Below are positions 9,764 through 63,966 of a DNA stretch of 63,966 bases, one piece after another. The position numbers were made by a program, and so were the translations under genes. The stretch comes from Chiloscyllium plagiosum (lineage: Eukaryota), in assembly GCF_004010195.1 (NCBI RefSeq), contig NC_057718.1, positions 97,343,644-97,407,609 of the forward strand. The letters run 5' to 3'. The notes below the pieces were generated by a model. The model was not told the DNA's origin. It made no database searches and worked only from the letters and a program-made list of their open reading frames with translations. Every line of letters begins with the position of its first letter. Positions within the stretch are counted from its first letter, which is position 1.

Positions 9764-10179
9764 ACAAATGGCAGCGGTGGGATGTTTGATTCCCTAAGAT
9801 TAGCAGGTGCAAATCACTCCGTAATGATCAAATGTATTTGTGTAGCTGTTTGATATGTGTTTCAAAGTGGATTTGGAGAAGTTTCTCATGGCAAGGGAAA
9901 TGAAGTATTTTCTATCACCTTTTATTCACAATTTCATGGTACAGTCTTGGTCCCTTTCCAACCCGGGACACAGTCAAAGGAGTAGACATTATCCTCAGGC
10001 CTCAGTGTGATAAAATGGTTGTGCATTACCTTACAGTTTGCAGCCAGACAGAGTCATTGCTACCGCACACAAATATTGCAGATACTGGTAATGTGCAATG
10101 CCCAACACTGTTTGACCATGTTATTCAAAGCCTGTGCTGCAGGTCAGATTCCTACTCTCACAGGAAATAACAATCAGAT

Positions 10180-10540
10180 GTCACACAACACGAGGTTGTA
10201 GTCCAACAGGTTTATTTGAAATCACAAAGCTGGCGAAGGAGCAGCTGTGTGGCTTCTGACGTTGTCCACCCCAGTCCAATGCCGGCACCTTCACATCAGG
10301 AAATAATGGCAAACGTGAGGACTGCAGATGCTGGAAATCAGAGTCTAGATGATCTATCACCTTCATCCCCACCTCCTATTGTACTCTTGGCTACCTTCTC
10401 CCCATCCCCACCCCCTTCCCATTTATCTCTCCACCCTGGAGGCTCCCTGCCTTCATTCCTGATGAACGGCTTTTGCCCAAAACGTCGATTTTCCTGCTCC
10501 TCGGCCTGCTGTTCTTTTCCAGCACCACTCTAATCTAGGC
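10180..10540. mobile_element. Two adjacent Penelope-like terminal-repeat relics
   Basis: 10180-10295 matches the 19557 family ('cacaacacgaggttgtagtccaacaggtttatt'). 10310-10540 matches the 'actgcagatgctgg...cctgatgaa.ggcttttgccc.aaacgtcg' family. Confidence 0.7.
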
Positions 10541-10998
10541 TCAGAAAATAACAGGACAGCCACTGAGAGCAGGACCTACCCAGAGAACTGGGAAGTACAG
10601 AGAGCATCATTCTGTTTCAAGTTTTCCGGGGATGTGGGCAGCACTGGCCAAGCCAACCTGTCCTACATGGCCGTGAAGGTGGTGGAAATGAGCTGTCCCC
10701 ACCAGTTTCTGGGGTATAGGGGTATAGGTGGTGCTGCTTGGAAGAGAATTTGAGGATTTTGACCCAGCGGCCATTTAACTCCAAGTTCTGTGGATTGGAG
10801 GGGAACCTGTAGCTGGTGGTGTTCCCATGCTTCTGCTGCCCTTATCTTTCTTGTTGGTCAATGGGCAGTTTTGGAAGTAGCTGGTGATTTTTTTCTCCCC
10901 CCAAGGTGATAGCAGAACAGGTGGGCTGAGCCAAAGGTTCGTGACTCCCATTGGCTTTCTTTCTCTTTTTTGCAATTTTTTTCAGCCCTTTTTCTTTC

Positions 10999-11629: not shown

Positions 11630-11960
11630 AGCCAAGAGGTTTTGGGGAAGATTTGTAGCTCAGGTTGTGGATCAGGTTGCTCGCTGAGCTGTTGGGTTTG
11701 TTCGCAGATGTTTCATCATCATGCTAGGTAACATCATCAGTGAGCCTCCAGTGAAGCATTGGTGTTCTGTCCTGCTTGATATTAAGGTGTCTCGGTTTGT
11801 TGTGGTGGGTGATATCATTTCCGGTTCTGTTTCTGGTAAATGGGATCCAGATCGATATGTTTGTTGTTGGAGTTCCCAGTTTGAATGCCAGGCCTCTAGG
11901 AATTCCCACGAGTGTCTTTATTTGGCCTTTCCCAGGTTGGGTGCATTGTCCCAGTCAAAC
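11630..11960 (-). mobile_element. Penelope-like element 3' end (GIY-YIG endonuclease C-terminus plus pLTR)
   Basis: Minus strand translates FDWDNAPNLGKAK*RHSWEFLEAWHSN..NKHIDLDPIY, followed by a hammerhead-like CTGATGA...GAAACATC. Confidence 0.85.
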
Positions 11961-19320: not shown

Positions 19321-19556
19321 GTGATTCAGGGATATCTCACTCTTCAATCATTTGGGGAGGTTGAAAGATTTTGAGTCAAAATGTAAAAGCATTTGCCCTG
19401 TAGTAGAAAAGGTTAGTGCCAGTTAACTCAGTGGCTCCTTTGTTGTTTAATGGTACAAGGGAGTTATAGGAAATAAAAGTTACACTCTAGAAAACCGCAT
19501 ATCATTCATTCAGAACACAGTTCACTCAACTGTTTACAAGTACACTTTATGAATAA

Positions 19557-19770
19557 AGTTAAAAATCACACAACACCAGGTTATAATCCAACAGGTCTGT
19601 TTGGAAGCACTAGCTTTCGGAGCGCTGCTCCTTCATCAGGTGATTGTCAATGATGAAGGAGCGTCGCTCCGAAAGCTAGTGCTTCCAAATAAACCTGCTG
19701 GACTATAACCTGGTGTTGGGTGATTTTTAACTTTGTCCACCCCAGACCAACACCGGCTCCTCCACATCGT
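19557..19770. mobile_element. Fold-back Penelope-like terminal-repeat element
   Basis: Inverted arms ~19557-19638 and ~19651-19732 ('aaaaatcacacaacaccaggttata...' / '...tataacctggtgttgggtgatttttaa'). Confidence 0.85.
19608..19642 (-). ncRNA. Minimal type I hammerhead ribozyme motif (PLE-associated)
   Basis: Minus strand: CAC-CUGAUGA-A-GGAGC(AGC)GCUCC-GAA-AGCU-A-GUG. Complete core, 5-bp stem II, palindromic AGCU helix III, CAC/GUG stem I. Confidence 0.7.
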
Positions 19771-20604
19771 GACCTTATGAATAGACACAGCAGCATATGT
19801 GTGATCATAGAATGAAGTACAATAGTGGGTTTATTGGGACATTTTCTGAATTATTGTTCTTCCTTTATACTGCATTTCTAGATATTCCATTCTATTATAC
19901 TCTAGATCCTCTCCACAATTTAATTTGCTACCTGATTTTTTTGACATTAGCAAATTTAGAACCGTACCATTAGTCCTTTAACCCAAGTCTTTTAAATAAG
20001 GTTGAAAAGCTTGAGACCCCAATTCTGATCCATGCAGCAAGACAATCTTTGCATCGTCGCAGCCAGAAAATGATCAATTAATATTCATTCTCTGTTTCCC
20101 CCGTCAATCTTCTATCTGCGCCAACATGTCATCCCCTACACCAGGAGCTTTTACTTCCCACAATAACCTTTCATGTTGCACCCAATTACAAATATGTTCA
20201 GAACGGTAACTCGATTTGGAGGAGAAAAGATTAATTCAGGACCTTGTAATTCATGCAATACTGAGAGATATTGCAAATGCTGGTAAAATTAGTTTTTAAA
20301 TGCGACTGCTGAGGTGTTGTCAGGATTGTTGTCCTTTAGGTTACACTTGAACACGGAATTGTTGAAAAGTAATAATGTTTTATAATTCCCAGACCCTGTT
20401 TCTAGAAGTTCCAATAAGGATGTATTGTGATCTAAATGCGATAACCTTTTGTATAGAAGTACAATTGCTATCATGTGGAGAACATGAATGCAGTTTAATT
20501 CCAATTGTAATATTCCAGGTGAATGAATGTAAAAATGATCCCTTCCAGTTACATTATGCCAGAATGTATTTGCTTAATGACCTAGTGGTATATTACAATA
20601 TGCT

Positions 20605-23496: not shown

Positions 23497-23825
23497 ATTA
23501 GATTAGATTCCCTACAGTATGGAAACAAGCCCTTTGGCCTAACAAGTCCACACAAACCCTCTGAAGAGCAACCAACCCAGACCCATTCCCCCACCCTATA
23601 TTTATCCCTGACTAATGCACCTCTCACTATGGGCAATTTAGCATGGCCAATTTACCTGACCTGCACATCTTTGGACTGTGGGAGGAAACCAGGGCACCCG
23701 GAGGAAACCCACGCAGACACGGGGAGAATGTGCAAACTCCACACAGACAGTCACCCAAGGCAGGAATCGAACCCGGGTCCCTGGCACTGTGAGGCAGCAG
23801 TGCTAACCACTGAGCCACCGTGCCT
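23497..23825 (-). mobile_element. HE1 SINE
   Basis: Full length. Confidence 0.95.
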
Positions 23826-32039: not shown

Positions 32040-32195
32040 AAAACCAGAAATGGCTTGAGAAACTCAGCAGGTCTGGCAGCATCTGTGGAGAGAAACTAGT
32101 TCTCAAGAAAGGTCGCTGGACTTGAAATGTTAACTCTGTCTTTCTGTCTCCACAGATGCTGCCAGACCTGCTGAGTTTTTCTAGCTATTTCCAGA
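32040..32195. mobile_element. Fold-back PLE-derived short element inside a CR1 3' UTR
   Basis: 'aaactcagcaggtctggcagcatctgtggagag' / 'tctccacagatgctgccagacctgctgagttt'. Confidence 0.8.
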
Positions 32196-32671: not shown

Positions 32672-33085
32672 TGGCGAAAGTGAGTACTGCAGATGCTGGA
32701 GTTCAGAGCCACGATTAGAGTGGTGCTGGAAAATCATTGCAGGTCAGGCAGCATCCGAGGAGCAGGAAAATCGATATTTCAGGCAAAAACCCTTCCTCAG
32801 GAATGAGGCTGGGAGTCTTGGGAGTGGAGAGATAAATGGGAGGGGGTGATACTGGGGAGAAGGTAGCTAAGAGTGCAAAAGATGGATAGAGGTGGGGGTA
32901 AAGGTGATAGGTCAGAGAGGAGGGTGGAGCGGATAGGTGGGAAGGAAGATTGACAGATGAGACAAGTCATGAGGCTAGTGCTGAGCTGGAAGGTTGGAAC
33001 TGGGGTAAGGTGGGGGGAAGGGGAAATGAGGAAACTGGTGAAGACCACATTGATGCCCTGGGGTTGAAGGGTTCCGAGGCAGAAG
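32672..33085 (-). mobile_element. Penelope-like element 3' end plus pLTR
   Basis: ORF 32797-33147 contains FCLGTLQPQGINVVFTSFLISP (PLE endonuclease C-terminus). Hammerhead-like CTGAGGA..GAAA follows. Confidence 0.85.
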
Positions 33086-33875
33086 AAGCTGGCAGAAGAC
33101 GCAGTGATGCTCAAATCCTGTGAATGAATGAGAAATGTCATGATCAAAGGAAGCTGCCTCCATTGGATTCATCAAGAACATTCACCCATTTGAGTAGACT
33201 CTTGAAATGGCTCCCAAAGATTGACTGCTCACCAGGGGTTCAGCCGAATCACATCAATTCACCACAACATAATGACCAAGGATAACCATGGCCAGAGTGT
33301 CCGATCATCCTTCCTCTTCCAGGGCAACCCTGTTTTTGAGTTGGTTGCCCACATGAGGCAGATTGTTTGCTGCTCTGCCCCTACTTTTTGATAATTTAAT
33401 GATCATTTAAGAGACACACTATGAATGAACATAGCACTGTCCCCTTGTTGAGCTGCTCCCAAATTCAGGATAACATCTCCTTCCCCACTGCCGAATTCAG
33501 CCAAGCAAGCCCCTCGCCCCACAGTCTGGTTTCGTTTGACGACCAGCATCTCAAAGATGAACCTCATGGTCCAGGATGTTGCTATACTGCCTCCTATCAG
33601 CTTTGACGGTGTGTGATGCTTGAAGCTGGTGATTGTTTCCTGGAGGTTCTGCTACCACCTGAATCTGTCACTTGACGCTGAAGTTAGGACATGCATCAAA
33701 ACTGCTTTGTCAAAGCTGTACAAAGAGAATATGGAGCCACAACAGCTTGTCTAGGAACACCAAACAGCAAGACTAGCAAGCCGGTGTCCTCAGTGTACTC
33801 CTCCACAGAGATGAGACCTGTACAATGCACGCTGAGCAGGAGAAAGGGTTGAACAGTTTGACGTATCATCAACAT

Positions 33876-34015
33876 CGAGTCGAGAGTGTGGTGCTGGAAA
33901 AGCACAGTAGGCCAGGCTGCATCCGAGGAGCAGGAGAATCGATGTTTTGGGCATAAGCCCTTTTCCAGCACTACACTCTCGACTATGATCTCCAGCATCT
34001 TCGGTCCTCATTTTC
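33876..34015. mobile_element. Internally deleted fold-back PLE terminal repeat
   Basis: 'gtcgagagtgtggtgctggaaaag' / 'cttttccagcactacactctcgac'. Confidence 0.8.
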
Positions 34016-41104: not shown

Positions 41105-41325
41105 GGTGAAAGTGAGGACTGCAGATGCTGGAGATCAGAGTCAAGATTAGAGTGGTGCTGGAAAAGCACAGCAGGTCAGGCAGCATCTGAGGAGCAGGAT
41201 GAATCGACATTTCGGGCATCATTCCGAAGGGATGAAAGGGCTTTTGCTCGAAATGTTGATTTTCCTGCTCCTCAGATGCTGCCTGACCTGCTGTGCTTTT
41301 CCAGCACCCCTCTAATCTTGACTCA
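41105..41325. mobile_element. Fold-back PLE terminal-repeat element
   Basis: ~80-bp inverted arms 'gagtcaagattagagtggtgctggaaaagcacagcaggtcaggcagcatctgaggagcagg' / 'cctgctcctcagatgctgcctgacctgctgtgcttttccagcacccctctaatcttgactc'. Confidence 0.85.
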
Positions 41326-53251: not shown

Positions 53252-53929
53252 CTGTGCCAACCCTTAGAACATTAGTCGGGGCCTTTAGATTACTAACCCA
53301 ATGACATGACAACTACATCACTGTCTCCCCATTACTGGAGCATATTTACAACACCCTGGTTTTAGACTCCTACGCAATGAAAGCCCCTCCTTATGTCAAT
53401 GCTATTGTGCCCTCCTTAATGCTAATTAACTTGCTCTAGTCACAGTCATTTGAGAGGAGTCGAAATCTGCAAAATATCTCCTGATAGTTCCTTGCAATAT
53501 TCAATAGTTTAATTAATCTGACTGTATTTGTCTGTTCACTGATCTAAGTCAACTTTGATTAGTTGCTGAAATCTGTAAGTGGTGACAAAAAGCTGTAGTA
53601 ACCTTGCAGATGGTCCCAGGAACAGACACAAAGATTGCTGGAGAAACGCAGAAGGTCTGGCAGCATCTGTGGAGAGAGAAATAGTTAACTGAAGTTTCTC
53701 CAACATTTTCTGTGTTTGAGTTAGAATTCCAGAATCTGCAGTATTTTGCTTTTACTGTAAGGTTGCAGGGTGTGGGCTGATAGTATGGTTCAGAAATCCT
53801 GTGAGTACAGACATACCTTAAAGTATTGGAAATGTAACTGTTGTAAACTAACGATGAGTGTCATCTCTGCATTGCTGTGAGATAGATCAGATGCAGGTAA
53901 CCCCAGCATTTTGAACATTTACTTTACGC

Positions 53930-54744
53930 AAAGACCTACGTTAGTATATTAAAGACCTACATTAGTATATTGAAGACCTACATTGGTATATTAAAGACCT
54001 ACATTAGTATACTAAAGACCTACACTGGTATATTAAAAATCTGCATTGATAAAATAAAGACCTATATTAGTATATTAAAGACCTACATTAGTATACTAAA
54101 GACCCACATTAGTATATTGAAGACCTACCTTGGTATATTAAAGACCTACATTAATATACTAAAGACCTATATTAGTATATTAAAGACCTACATTAGTATA
54201 TTAAAGACCTATATTAGTACACTAAAGACCCACATTAGTATATTGAAGACCTACATTGGTATATTAAACACCTACATTAGTATACTAAAGACCCACATTA
54301 GTATATTGAAGACCTACATTGGTATATTAAAGACCTTCATTAGTATATTAAAGACCCATATTAGTATATTTAGGACCTACATTAGTATACTAAAGATCCA
54401 CATTAGTATATTGAAGACCTACATTGGTATACTAAAGACCTACATTAGTATACTAAAGACCTACATTAGTATACTAAAGATCTACATTAGTATACTAAAG
54501 GCCTACATTAGTATACTAAAGACCCACATTAGTATATTGAAGACCTACATTAGTATATTGAAGACCTACATTGGTATATTAAAGACCTACATTAATATAT
54601 TAAAGACCTATATTAGTATACTAAAAACCTACATTAGTGTATTGAAGACCTACATTAGTATATTGAAGACCTACATTGGTAGATTAAAGACCTACATTGG
54701 TATATTAAAGACCTACATTAGTATATTGAAGACCTACATTAGTA
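53930..54744. repeat. 21-bp minisatellite, ~39 units
   Basis: Consensus AAAGACCTACATTAGTATATT; substitutions only, no visible indels. Confidence 0.97.
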
Positions 54745-55189
54745 CCTGTTTTCATGAATCTGAAGACGATTTTTGCGTTTACGAAAAATGGCAATACGTT
54801 TTCCCATATAAATCATGCATCTTTGCTTTACCCCATTTTCAACTCACAGAAGGTTTCCTGGGAATGCTCTACTTTCAGATAGCGGAGGCTAGCTGTACAT
54901 AAAATGGATAGCAAATTGGTGACTTCAGAAGTAAGTTTTTTGTTGCACTTTCTCTAGTGTATCCATTTCCTTTTGTTTTCAAATGGAGACCAGAATTGGT
55001 TATAGTGAGGTCTAACTAAGATCGTAACGTTGTCTGGGTTAGATGAACAATCACTCATATTTCCAGTTATACAAATCACCAAATGTTATTCAAAGTTATC
55101 CTGTTTTTCTTTAGTAAGCAGGTTAGGGAGATACTGTTAATCTTTTCAAAAACAATTTAAAAATAGATTGTGAGACAAGAATTCCAAAT

Positions 55190-56484: not shown

Positions 56485-57413
56485 TATCATCATCGGCTGT
56501 CCCTCAGCTCATGGTTGACCTTTATTCAGGGTTGTGGGATTTTGTTCTGTGTCTTCACAGTCTGATTCTCCACCCATTGGGCAAATGGGACTGAATGAGG
56601 ATAGGAGATCTAGGGTTGCAAGAATTCCTTCCCTCCCTGCACTGCCTCCTGACTAAGACTGTGAACATGATACAGCTTTGTCAACACGTTTGACTGTTTT
56701 GAATGATTGATAACAGCCGCTCCTTCTGGTTATTACGGTCAATGGTGCTGCGCTTCAAAGAGAGCTCAGGAATGTCTTTCAGAGTGTTCTCTTTGTCATC
56801 TCCTGCAATGTTGGCCATCTGAGAGGAGTGGGCTGCAGGAGATGTTTTTCAACCATCCAGACACAGCAGGCATTGCTTTGAAGTGGATTTGGGAGCTGGG
56901 AGTGTGGTGTTGGAAAAGCACAGCAGGTCAGGCAGCATCCGAGGAGCAGGAAAATCGACGTTTCATCCATAGGCCCTTCATCAGGAATGTCGATTTTCCT
57001 CCTCCTCGGATGACCTGCTGTGCTTTTCCAGCACCACACTCTCGAGTCTAATCTCCAGCATCTGCAGTCCTCACTTTCGCCCTGGATTTTGGAGGTGTTT
57101 TGCCAAAGGTGTATGGAGCCAGCTCCAACAGTGATGCAGGCATAAGTTCAGTAGTCCTCCCATTGTATCGGGTGGAGCCATTGCTGATGGACTTCGTCTC
57201 AAACTGTTGTGCTTCACTGTTATACATTCCAGGTAGCAGTATAGAACAGGACAGGGGTGACAGCAACTGTGTGCACTAAGAAAGATCTTGGTGACCAGCA
57301 GAGGCATCTGTTGTCAACTACTGGCTGATGTTGTTTGCCAAAGGTTGAGCTTGGACAGCCGACTCAGTGCTGGATCTGCTCATCAGTGTCTTGAGTGGGA
57401 GATCTGAAATAGG
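56485..57413 (-). mobile_element. Old RTE LINE, 3' segment (interrupted by a PLE hairpin)
   Basis: Minus strand: YFRSPTQDTDEQIQH*V ~ YLGS.LS..DIDEEIQHRI, then decayed post-RT motifs and a short (GAT)n tail at ~56485. Confidence 0.6.
56898..57082. mobile_element. Fold-back PLE terminal-repeat element
   Basis: 'gagtgtggtgttggaaaagcacagcaggtca' / 'tgacctgctgtgcttttccagcaccacactc'. Confidence 0.85.
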
Positions 57414-57428
57414 CCCCTACAGATCCTC

Positions 57429-57727
57429 AGGGCAAACAACCCCACTGCTCTGTGGATGACCACTTCAACTCCCCCTCCCACACCACCAAAGACATGCAAG
57501 TCCTGGGCCTCCTCCACCACCAAATCATAGCCACCTGATGCCTGGAGGAGGAACTCCTCATCTTCTGCCTTGGGACCCTACAACCACACAGTATCAACAT
57601 CGATTTCACCAGTTTCCTCATCTCCCCACCGACGTGACTGATGAAGGGCTCATGTCCGTAATGTTGACTCTCCTGCTCCTCAGATGCTGCCTGACCTGCT
57701 GTGCTTTTCTAGCACCACACATTTTGA
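57429..57727 (+). mobile_element. Penelope-like element 3' end with probable 13-bp TSD
   Basis: HFNSPSHTTKDMQVLGLLHHQ....LEEELLIFCLGTLQPHSINIDFTSF. Flanks cctacagatcctc (57416-57428) / cctacaaattctc (57728-57740). Confidence 0.85.
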
Positions 57728-61628: not shown

Positions 61629-62576
61629 TCCTAAACATTGAATGGTCAGAAATTAGGTTTGTTTTGAGTATGATGTAGTCCTTACAATGCCACAGACAGG
61701 AGTTTAGGTTCTCCTAGAGCCACTGAAGACAGGTTGCCTGCATCTTCGTTAATGAACAGGACATGGGCATTGGAAAGGCCAAAATGTGTTACCCATCCCC
61801 AAACTGGTGAGCTTGCTCAGCCAAAGATCCCCAAACTGGGGAGCTTGCTCAACCTTTTCAGAGGGCAGTTAAGAGTCACGCCAAGGTCAGACCAAGTAAT
61901 GATAGCAGAGTTCCTTTCCTGAAGAAATGAGTACACTGGATGGGTTTTTAACAACAATCAGTGAGAGCTGTCATCACTACCAAAGGTAACTTTAAGAAAT
62001 TCCAGACTAATTCACTGATGGAAATGCCACTAAATGTCAGAGATAGGGTTGAACTTCTGTCCCCAGTGAAGCAGACTGGGAGTTAGGCTTCTAATCTGGT
62101 GTGCATGACCACTATGCTACCATCTCAGCACTGAGTTGTAGTTGTTCTTGCTAACCTTCTTGGTTAGAAACAAGTAGATAACACTCTCTGCTTGAAATTA
62201 AGGCATGTTTTCCCGTGAGTGGGTCTGGTAAGGTCACATATTAAATTTGAATCTCTAAGTATTGGCAAACTCACATAGCATAAAAATTGAAACGCTATTG
62301 TCACTATATCCTCTCCCAGAGCCCCCATCATCAGCATAAATGTCACCTATCCCCAGTTATTTTCAGTTCCAACAAAGGGTCATTGGATTCGAAATGTTAC
62401 CTCTACTCCTCAGGTGCAGCCAGGCCAGCTGAATTTCTCTAGCACTTTCTATTTGTGTTTCAGATTTTCTGCATCCACAGTCCTTTTGTTTTATTACACA
62501 CTTTCAAATTACCTATTCAGTGTTAGCACATCGGTCCATTTTCCATGGTGAATTTATCTACTACTTTGCAACTTGA

Positions 62577-62910
62577 GTTAAAAATCACACAACACCAGGT
62601 TTATTTGGAAGTACTAGCTTTCGGAGCACTGCTACTTCATCAGGTAGCTGTGGAACAGGATCATAAGACACAGAATTTATAACAAAAGATTACAGTGTCA
62701 TGCAACTGAAATGATATATTGAACAAACCCAGATTGCTGTTAAGTCTTTCAGCTTTTAGAATGGGTTGCAGGTTTCAGTTCATTAATATGTAAATCCCAG
62801 GTCTTCTTTTAAGTCACATTCTAGGGATAACTTAAGGTTTTATAAAAAAAAGTGACATCTCAGCTCAGACAATGCATTAAAGGTGTGAGTTTAGAGTCCA
62901 ACTGTATCCC
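62577..62910 (-). mobile_element. Penelope-like pLTR (19557 family) with hammerhead motif at 62612-62646
   Basis: 'ttaaaaatcacacaacaccagg'. Minus strand UAC-CUGAUGA-A-GUAGC(AGU)GCUCC-GAA-AGCU-A-GUA. Confidence 0.75.
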
Positions 62911-63169
62911 AGACATCTTTGCAACATTAAACATTCATTGTGGCTGCTGGTCCATTGTTTACCAACATTTCCTATAATTGTTCCTATCCAATCTTCCCTG
63001 CCATTGTGACAAAGGGCACAATCAAATCTAACTTCGCTCTGTGCGCAGGGGGACATGGGTAGCCTGGCTGATACATCTCTACCTGCTCAGAATTTTAGTG
63101 GTAACAGCCCTATCCCGGGTGAGTTCACCTACTTCAGCACCGAACATTGATCCAACCGCAATGTTTCTG

Positions 63170-63328
63170 AAAACAAAAAAAATGCTGGAGATCACAGCAT
63201 CTGTGGAGAGAGACCAAGCTAATGTTTCCAGTCTAAACTCGAAACATTAGCTTGCTTTCTCTCCATGGACGCTGTCTGACCTGCTGTGATTCAGTACAGA
63301 TTCCAGCATCTGTAGTAATTTGCTCCTA
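63170..63328. mobile_element. Fold-back PLE-derived short element
   Basis: 'ctgtggagagagaccaagctaatgtttc' / 'gaaacattagcttgctttctctccatgg'. Confidence 0.75.
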
Positions 63329-63679: not shown

Positions 63680-63966
63680 GTCTGGTGAAGGGCTTTTGCC
63701 CGAAACGTCGATTCTCCTGCTCCTCAGGTGCTGCCTGACCTGCTGTGCATTTCCAGCACTATACTCTCAACTCTCCCACCCTGCCCCCTGTAAAAACACG
63801 ATCCCATATTCCCAATTCCTTCGCCTCCGCCGCATCTGCTCCCAGGAGGACCAATTCCAATAACGAACAACCCAGATGGCCTCCTTCTTCAAAGACCGCA
63901 ATTTCCCCTCAGACGTGGTTGATGATGCTCTCCACCGCATCTCCTCCACTTCCTGCTCCTCCGTCC
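63680..63966 (+). mobile_element. Penelope-like element: pLTR end followed by an RT C-terminal fragment (runs off the window)
   Basis: CTGGTGA-A-GGGC(TTTT)GCCC-GAAACGTC, then SHPAPCKNTIPYSQFLRLRRICSQEDQF..., typical of the PLE RT thumb. Confidence 0.88.

Follow-up and report, generated by a model that had tools for sequence, protein, structure and literature searches.

We find it highly probable that the minus strand of positions 19608-19642 holds a minimal hammerhead derived from the pseudo-LTR (pLTR) of a very abundant Penelope-like element (PLE) family of cartilaginous fish, and that the insertion at this locus was dead on arrival, leaving what is most likely an inert relic. The motif forms part of one arm of a head-to-head insertion of about 220 bp (19556-19774), a setting absent from the first-pass annotation of this DNA. 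By "the window" we mean the whole stretch that was analysed, 63,966 nucleotides of Chiloscyllium plagiosum DNA. The single locus matters little, being one of very many Penelope stubs. It adds a cartilaginous-fish family to the known PLE minimal hammerheads, and a poly(A) site located just behind an uncut ribozyme makes the in vivo role of PLE hammerheads testable by end-capture sequencing.

The hammerhead motif and its fold-back setting

Re-reading of the letters confirmed the minus-strand sequence from 19642 to 19608 as first reported. All 11 letters of the core (CUGANGA / GAAA / UH) are present. A19632 is a single unpaired base between positions 9 and 10.1, G19631 pairs with C19619 (G10.1-C11.1), and cleavage is predicted between 19611 and 19610, after CUA. 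The parts of the motif, all on the minus strand, are the following.

19608..19642, minus strand: minimal type I hammerhead (sequence, descriptor scan, comparison of window motifs)
19642-19640, minus strand: stem I 5' strand, CAC (sequence)
19639-19633, minus strand: CUGAUGA box (sequence)
19632, minus strand: extra A (sequence)
19631-19627, minus strand: stem II 5' strand, GGAGC, followed by the loop AGC (sequence)
19623-19619, minus strand: stem II 3' strand, GCUCC (sequence)
19618-19616, minus strand: GAA box (sequence)
19615-19612, minus strand: palindromic helix III, AGCU (sequence)
19611, minus strand: A17 of the CUA triplet (sequence)
19610-19608, minus strand: stem I 3' strand, GUG (sequence)

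The descriptor with which both strands of the window were scanned required the core boxes, stem II, UH and stem I, and allowed one optional extra base and up to 4 bases in helix III. Only 19608-19642 matched with a stem I of at least 3 bp and a stem II of at least 4 bp, whereas 500 dinucleotide shuffles gave 0.004 matches on average, and none of the 500 matched the strictest descriptor (palindromic helix III, stem II of at least 5 bp). A chance match as the origin of the motif is ruled out by these shuffle counts. The heptamer CTGATGA alone is mildly enriched in the window (21 versus 14.8 expected; 4 of 100 shuffles as high). An Rfam search up to E=10 returned 14 matches, none to a hammerhead model, and the curated hammerhead threshold was not reached.

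The first-pass annotation had also called this the best-preserved copy in the window, and this was borne out: it is the sole one of 12 core-anchored motifs with a full core and intact stems. All 11 core letters are found in eight of these motifs, among which only 19608-19642 also has the first four stem II pairs intact, helix III palindromic and stem I 3 bp long.

The insertion comprises two 84-bp arms, one of which carries a tail of about 39 nt, and is flanked by a target-site duplication of 9 bp. Its features, with a third copy of the family, are listed below.

19547..19555, plus strand: target-site duplication, left copy, TTATGAATA (flank comparison)
19556..19647, minus strand: left arm, a 5'-truncated pLTR end keeping 8 nt upstream of the core, ending at the family's short 3' end and tail-less (repeat comparison, reads and contigs)
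19596..19601, minus strand: AACAGA, a poly(A) signal of the left arm that has decayed, with departures from the family majority at 19597 and 19599 (contig comparison)
19639..19650, no strand: head-to-head junction, rare among family copies (summed contig depth)
19651..19734, plus strand: right arm, an inverted pLTR end (arm alignment)
19651-19681, plus strand: second hammerhead, in the right arm, lacking C3 and stem I (comparison of window motifs)
19688..19693, plus strand: AATAAA poly(A) signal of the right arm (sequence, family RNA reads)
19735..19773, plus strand: PLE tail of about 39 nt, on the right arm only, its end approximate (repeat comparison; family contigs end behind 19768)
19775..19783, plus strand: target-site duplication, right copy (flank comparison)
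62576..62646, minus strand: third family copy, with a full core, one stem II pair broken and a 15-nt deletion downstream

The inverted repeat spans 19555-19734 (arms 19555-19638 and 19651-19734), with 77 of 84 nucleotides identical from arm to arm, and the two hammerheads start 11 nt apart. The insertion is ORF-less. Behind 19647, reads and contigs depart into family upstream sequence resembling the 62.6-kb copy. No same-strand tandem partner of 19608-19642 was found nearby in the window, the next same-strand copy being 43 kb away.

The exact 9-bp duplication encloses the whole palindrome and extends to 12 bp with one mismatch; when 5000 pairs of flanks of equal size were drawn at random, 55 shared a word of at least 9 bp. 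Six other insertions were tested likewise: two have duplications of 9-10 bp, and four have only 5-7-bp words. On the minus strand the left junction reads ATT, in AT-rich target DNA, which fits the cleavage preference of an anole PLE as given in excerpts of PMC11167929.

In EN+ PLE insertions, according to excerpts of Arkhipova et al. (2013, PMC3846280), an inverted pLTR lies next to the direct one, a 31-bp tail may be present, and the target-site duplication is 9 bp long; the same layout is repeated in parts of Craig et al. (2021, PMC8557442) and of PMC8969392. Like the insertions described there (PMC3846280, PMC8557442), ours has a head-to-head inverted pLTR, a 30-40-nt tail at one end and a target-site duplication of 8-10 bp; unlike them, it has only two pLTR ends and no ORF. 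The tail has been explained by two reverse-transcription start sites, the target being ATT in AT-rich DNA (PMC11167929, in part). By analogy with this literature, the GIY-YIG endonuclease of the element would make a staggered cut in AT-rich DNA, giving the 9-bp duplication, and reverse transcription with an internal start would copy only the last 90-125 nt or so of the pLTR, with early truncation near the hammerhead. The observed layout, in which one arm has the short 3' end and the other the tail, could arise if an inverted second copy were added head to head at insertion.

Abundance and relatives of the family

Public sequencing runs were compared with the element at likeness 85. The element matched 60,931 contigs in a DNA run from organism A, 81,625 from organism B and 8,903 in an assembly presumed to be of RNA; these are not copy numbers, but they make it clear that the family is very abundant in both of these related organisms. 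Of the contigs of organism B, one joins the left flank to the element as far as 19566, a second enters the right flank from 19738, and none spans the centre. Both junctions being bridged in this organism, the insertion predates the split of the two.

Run X1 had a summed contig depth of 2,905 at position 19650 of the junction and of 234,493 at 19643; the corresponding figures for run X13 were 8,604 and 1,581,101. The junction depth is about 1 in 80 (X1) to about 1 in 180 (X13) of that 7 nt away. The listing contains 612 different joints. So rare a junction and so many joints mean that this centre did not multiply as one unit. The whole palindrome might otherwise be seen as a non-autonomous fold-back or MITE-like unit with the hammerhead as a passenger, as the target-site duplication encloses the entire palindrome and several other short palindromes are present in the window. 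We regard this as very unlikely, given the low junction depth and the variety of listed joints, the asymmetry of the arms, with a tail on one side, and the copy at 62.6 kb, which is solo and non-inverted. A truncated pLTR insertion is the preferred reading.

None of the differences listed falls in 19608-19642, so that the ribozyme appears to be the family majority sequence; 19586, 19597 and 19599 differ from that majority. The first-pass annotation had proposed to look for excess conservation of the core over its flanks. At this copy, to which the comparison is confined, no such excess was seen (0/35 versus 3/53 listed differences, Fisher p=0.27). The intact core is what would be expected of a lightly aged copy of the family majority, with no sign of selection at the locus. 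Exact-pattern scans of metagenome, viral and prokaryote collections gave 0 matches in each.

In the 62.6-kb copy, stem I is altered on both sides (TAC/GTA versus CAC/GTG), a compensatory double change. Upstream of it lie about 300 nt of AT-rich DNA (62646-62950, minus strand), the last 30 nt of which agree with family upstream sequence in the reads; this segment possibly represents the remainder of the pLTR or 3' UTR. A collapsed relative of the focal family is found at 10181-10297. The collapsed palindrome around it (10161-10545) has a tail and a 10-bp target-site duplication, and a second-family stub follows directly.

At least three other hammerhead-bearing repeat families are present in the window, several of them also as head-to-head pairs. 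Across the 12 window motifs 128 of 132 core letters are kept, a count that is biased because the motifs were hand-anchored on the core. Helix III is palindromic in 9 of the 12, reading ACGU or AUAU in sister families. In four window families, a small hand-anchored sample, stem II, stem I and helix III vary in sequence yet pair. Such between-family changes that keep pairing are real evidence that the parent elements were selected for the hammerhead fold.

Head-to-head palindromic stubs of other hammerhead-bearing or related families are seen at 41138-41324, 56900-57041, 32047-32191, 63194-63275 and 33878-34015, the 33.9-kb stub having a 9-bp target-site duplication. In a third hammerhead family (11641-11960, minus strand), stem II is longer and the extra base is U. 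This family stands behind a frameshifted remnant, which we take to resemble the C-terminus of Poseidon-type endonucleases. Pfam recognised none of three short remnants submitted, and it did not confirm the endonuclease likeness at 11641-11960.

Coding sequence was found next to the second (sister) hammerhead family, which has an ACGU helix III (57434-57720, plus strand; 32717-33126, minus strand) and at least seven core-bearing copies in the window. This family sits directly behind a decayed GIY-YIG endonuclease C-terminus, a link seen at 57.4-57.6 kb and at 33.0 kb. The 59 residues upstream of its hammerhead at 57638 match 33 proteins in a full HMMER search; a word-indexed protein search with the sister-family peptide gave 0 matches. 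Among 13 homologues scanned, four have a GIY-YIG match, which exceeds the Pfam cut-off in one and is accompanied by RVT_1 in one. All six homologues whose source was looked up come from rays, skates or whale shark, which adds support for a cartilaginous fish as the host of the family.

For the focal family, tblastn of the 33 homologues against the window returned only the sister family and CR1-like RT fragments, with no coding remnant joined to it. The designation of the motif as a Penelope-derived minimal hammerhead stands for the ribozyme type and, through the PLE features (inverted pLTR, tail, target-site duplication), for the derivation, but no Penelope ORF was found joined to the focal family. 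Its membership of the PLEs is supported by layout and ribozyme type. At 63774-63878 (plus strand) lies a remnant with 57% identity over 35 residues to one PLE-type homologue, adjoining a second-family stub at the window end.

Predicted folding and RNA reads

The 221-nt region is predicted to fold into a single hairpin of -148 kcal/mol (z -19.9; 0 of 200 shuffles as stable). In RNA reading through from the minus strand, the antisense arm is transcribed first and the whole is predicted to be fully double-stranded, with a stem II probability of 0 and a cost of 46.3 kcal/mol for forcing the ribozyme fold, folding energies that disregard proteins and kinetics. For nascent chains ending at 19608-19580, the stem II probability stays at 0. 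In RNA that begins at the centre, stem II would form (0.97) and stem I hardly at all (0.0005), the ribozyme fold lying at +5.1 kcal/mol. Dimerization via AGCU yields -16.3 kcal/mol versus -18.2 for two monomers and -25.5 for the best cofold. The dimer being weaker than two monomers, AGCU pairing is not favoured without help.

Hairpins of this stability raise the question of whether the locus matters as a long RNA hairpin, that is, as a miRNA or endo-siRNA precursor or an ADAR substrate. Rfam miRNA models do match, with scores far below gathering (45.6 of 160 and 41.9 of 81 bits) and from plant or mammal families; we rejected these sub-threshold matches as artefacts caused by the palindrome. 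No locus-specific reads were seen, and A>G changes are not leading (4 A>G and 12 T>C versus 19 C>T and 22 G>A places), in a count where family variation masks editing. Such a role is therefore extremely improbable.

Raw RNA reads matching the element numbered 3154 of 12,955,460; the analysis covered about 2 in 100 of one run, from one sample. None of the 3154 gave depth on the flanks 19331-19530 and 19811-20530, though so small a sample leaves silence of the locus unproven. A search of public runs listed no RNA run containing the locus, an outcome that carries no weight either way. In the 3154 reads, starts or ends of molecules did not pile up at any position, but short cleavage products would not appear among them. 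On both arms, first mates favoured the strand opposite the hammerhead about 4.5-fold (1071 versus 240, and 680 versus 138), a bias which, assuming an oligo-dT library, would correspond to hammerhead-sense RNA.

Poly(A) loose ends were found behind 19705 (221 reads) and 19708 (292 reads), and poly(T) loose ends before 19581 (261 reads), the mirror position. This poly(A) site follows AATAAA by 12-15 nt and the cut site by 27-30 nt; the present copy has no genomic A-run there. On the hammerhead, 431 further reads cross the cut site and 27 family bases and run on into T residues; their loose length is 95, in agreement with 27 plus the 67-69 at the poly(A) ends. Those 431 reads are uncut polyadenylated molecules from other family copies. 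Agreement among loose ends is high (0.95 and 0.86), which suggests that many family reads are supplied by few transcripts. Cut 3' pieces of 27-30 nt would probably escape detection in the RNA run. An RNA joint between opposite strands, 19609/19679 (20 reads), might be taken for a trace of cleavage or ligation; we rejected this, as the joint is an in-register switch between the arms.

At the family level, and not for this locus, one may speculate that host transcripts ending in such a stub carry a latent tail-removing switch, cut only when a second family RNA pairs via AGCU or when a PLE protein binds. Given many thousands of copies, mRNA stability in sharks could then be controlled from scattered sites, with transposons as the trigger. 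We consider this very improbable; what is observed is the poly(A) site and the uncut hammerheads before it. In Clec2 a 3'-UTR hammerhead has been suggested to act in poly(A) control (excerpts of PMC6155905). We found no literature on poly(A) use behind PLE hammerheads in a search that most subscription papers lay outside. As for a host gene, none of 150 non-repeat open frames matched Pfam (153 were listed and 3 left out), a search in which short exons would be missed.

These data bear on the suggestion of the first-pass annotation that the motif may self-cleave if transcribed, which proved weak for this copy: the ribozyme is predicted to be buried in the hairpin, the second arm lacks C3, and there is no near tandem partner. 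A working ribozyme here would call for a transcript that starts at the junction or is otherwise freed from the hairpin, pairs through AGCU in trans and is cut after CUA. Its core and stems are intact, the insertion is common to two organisms, a junction-start RNA would escape the hairpin with stem II at 0.97, and the 3154 family reads indicate RNA in the cell as a possible partner. Against this stand the 46 kcal/mol for opening the hairpin, the dimer energy (-16.3 versus -18.2 for monomers and -25.5 kcal/mol for the best cofold), the lack of flank reads and of any pile-up of starts or ends, the p=0.27 for excess conservation at this copy and the decayed poly(A) signal of the left arm. We judge this very unlikely: activity of this copy is argued against by the read-through hairpin and its cost, the missing tandem partner, the C3-less second arm and the empty flanks.

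We favour an inert relic. In the parent element, the ribozyme probably cuts a multimeric precursor RNA slowly, via the AGCU dimer or with protein help. In this copy, folding predicts that read-through RNA would form a hairpin of about 85 bp burying the ribozyme, and it is for this reason that we see the locus as most likely an inert relic whose core is not yet mutated. In the portions of the sources consulted, tested PLE-type hammerheads were inactive as monomers and of low activity as dimers or multimers (PMC4209133), the PLE hammerhead of an anole element cuts only with the element's protein (PMC11167929), and one of nine Xenopus retrozyme dimers cut (bioRxiv 10.64898/2026.07.22.740005).

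Known systems and other window features

Excerpts of Cervera and de la Pena (2014, PMC4209133) give as traits of PLE minimal hammerheads an extra base between 9 and 10.1, a G10.1-C11.1 pair and palindromic 15.2-16.2. They occur mostly solo in truncated copies, and opposite-strand pairs within about 100-700 bp are mentioned (PMC4209133, in part). The present motif is like the metazoan ones described there (PMC4209133) in being of type I, with no stable helix III, palindromic 15.2-16.2, the extra base and G10.1-C11.1. It differs from those of Schistosoma (same excerpts, PMC4209133), in which stem I has 4-5 bp and stem II 7-8 bp, here 3 and 5 bp. No shark family is named among the PLE minimal hammerheads in these excerpts of PMC4209133.

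Poseidon PAc of Anolis, as presented in parts of Frangieh et al. (2024, PMC11167929), likewise has a hammerhead in its pLTR, two 3' ends defining the tail and an ATT/AT-rich target, and likewise no RNA-seq reads ending at the cut site. Unlike PAc, whose ORF starts at stem II, our copy has in the hammerhead core an ATG whose open frame, read from the sequence, stops after 8 codons, with a poly(A) signal in use beyond the cut site. Non-LTR animal retrozymes (Li et al. 2026, bioRxiv 10.64898/2026.07.22.740005, in part) share with it a PLE derivation, a non-coding nature and a type I hammerhead, and are reported there in the one chondrichthyan sampled. Whereas retrozymes form head-to-tail tandem arrays with complete hammerheads, the copies here are head to head, within a target-site duplication, and the second lacks C3.

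Every structural trait, including the extra A and the opposite-strand pairs, is already described for PLEs. No literature on these families or on shark hammerheads was found in a search that had most subscription papers and Repbase outside its reach.

Self-similar repeat makes up about 31% of the window. A SINE-like repeat of about 300 bp and CR1-like RT fragments have many copies throughout, for instance at 648-940 and 23500-23824. A short frame at 63070-63165 (minus strand), between AG and GT, is a candidate exon, the acceptor of which would derive from the tail of a palindromic stub. Finally, a tandem array with a period of 21 nt occupies 53825-54900 and contains a plus-strand open frame of 333 residues, probably a by-product of the period.
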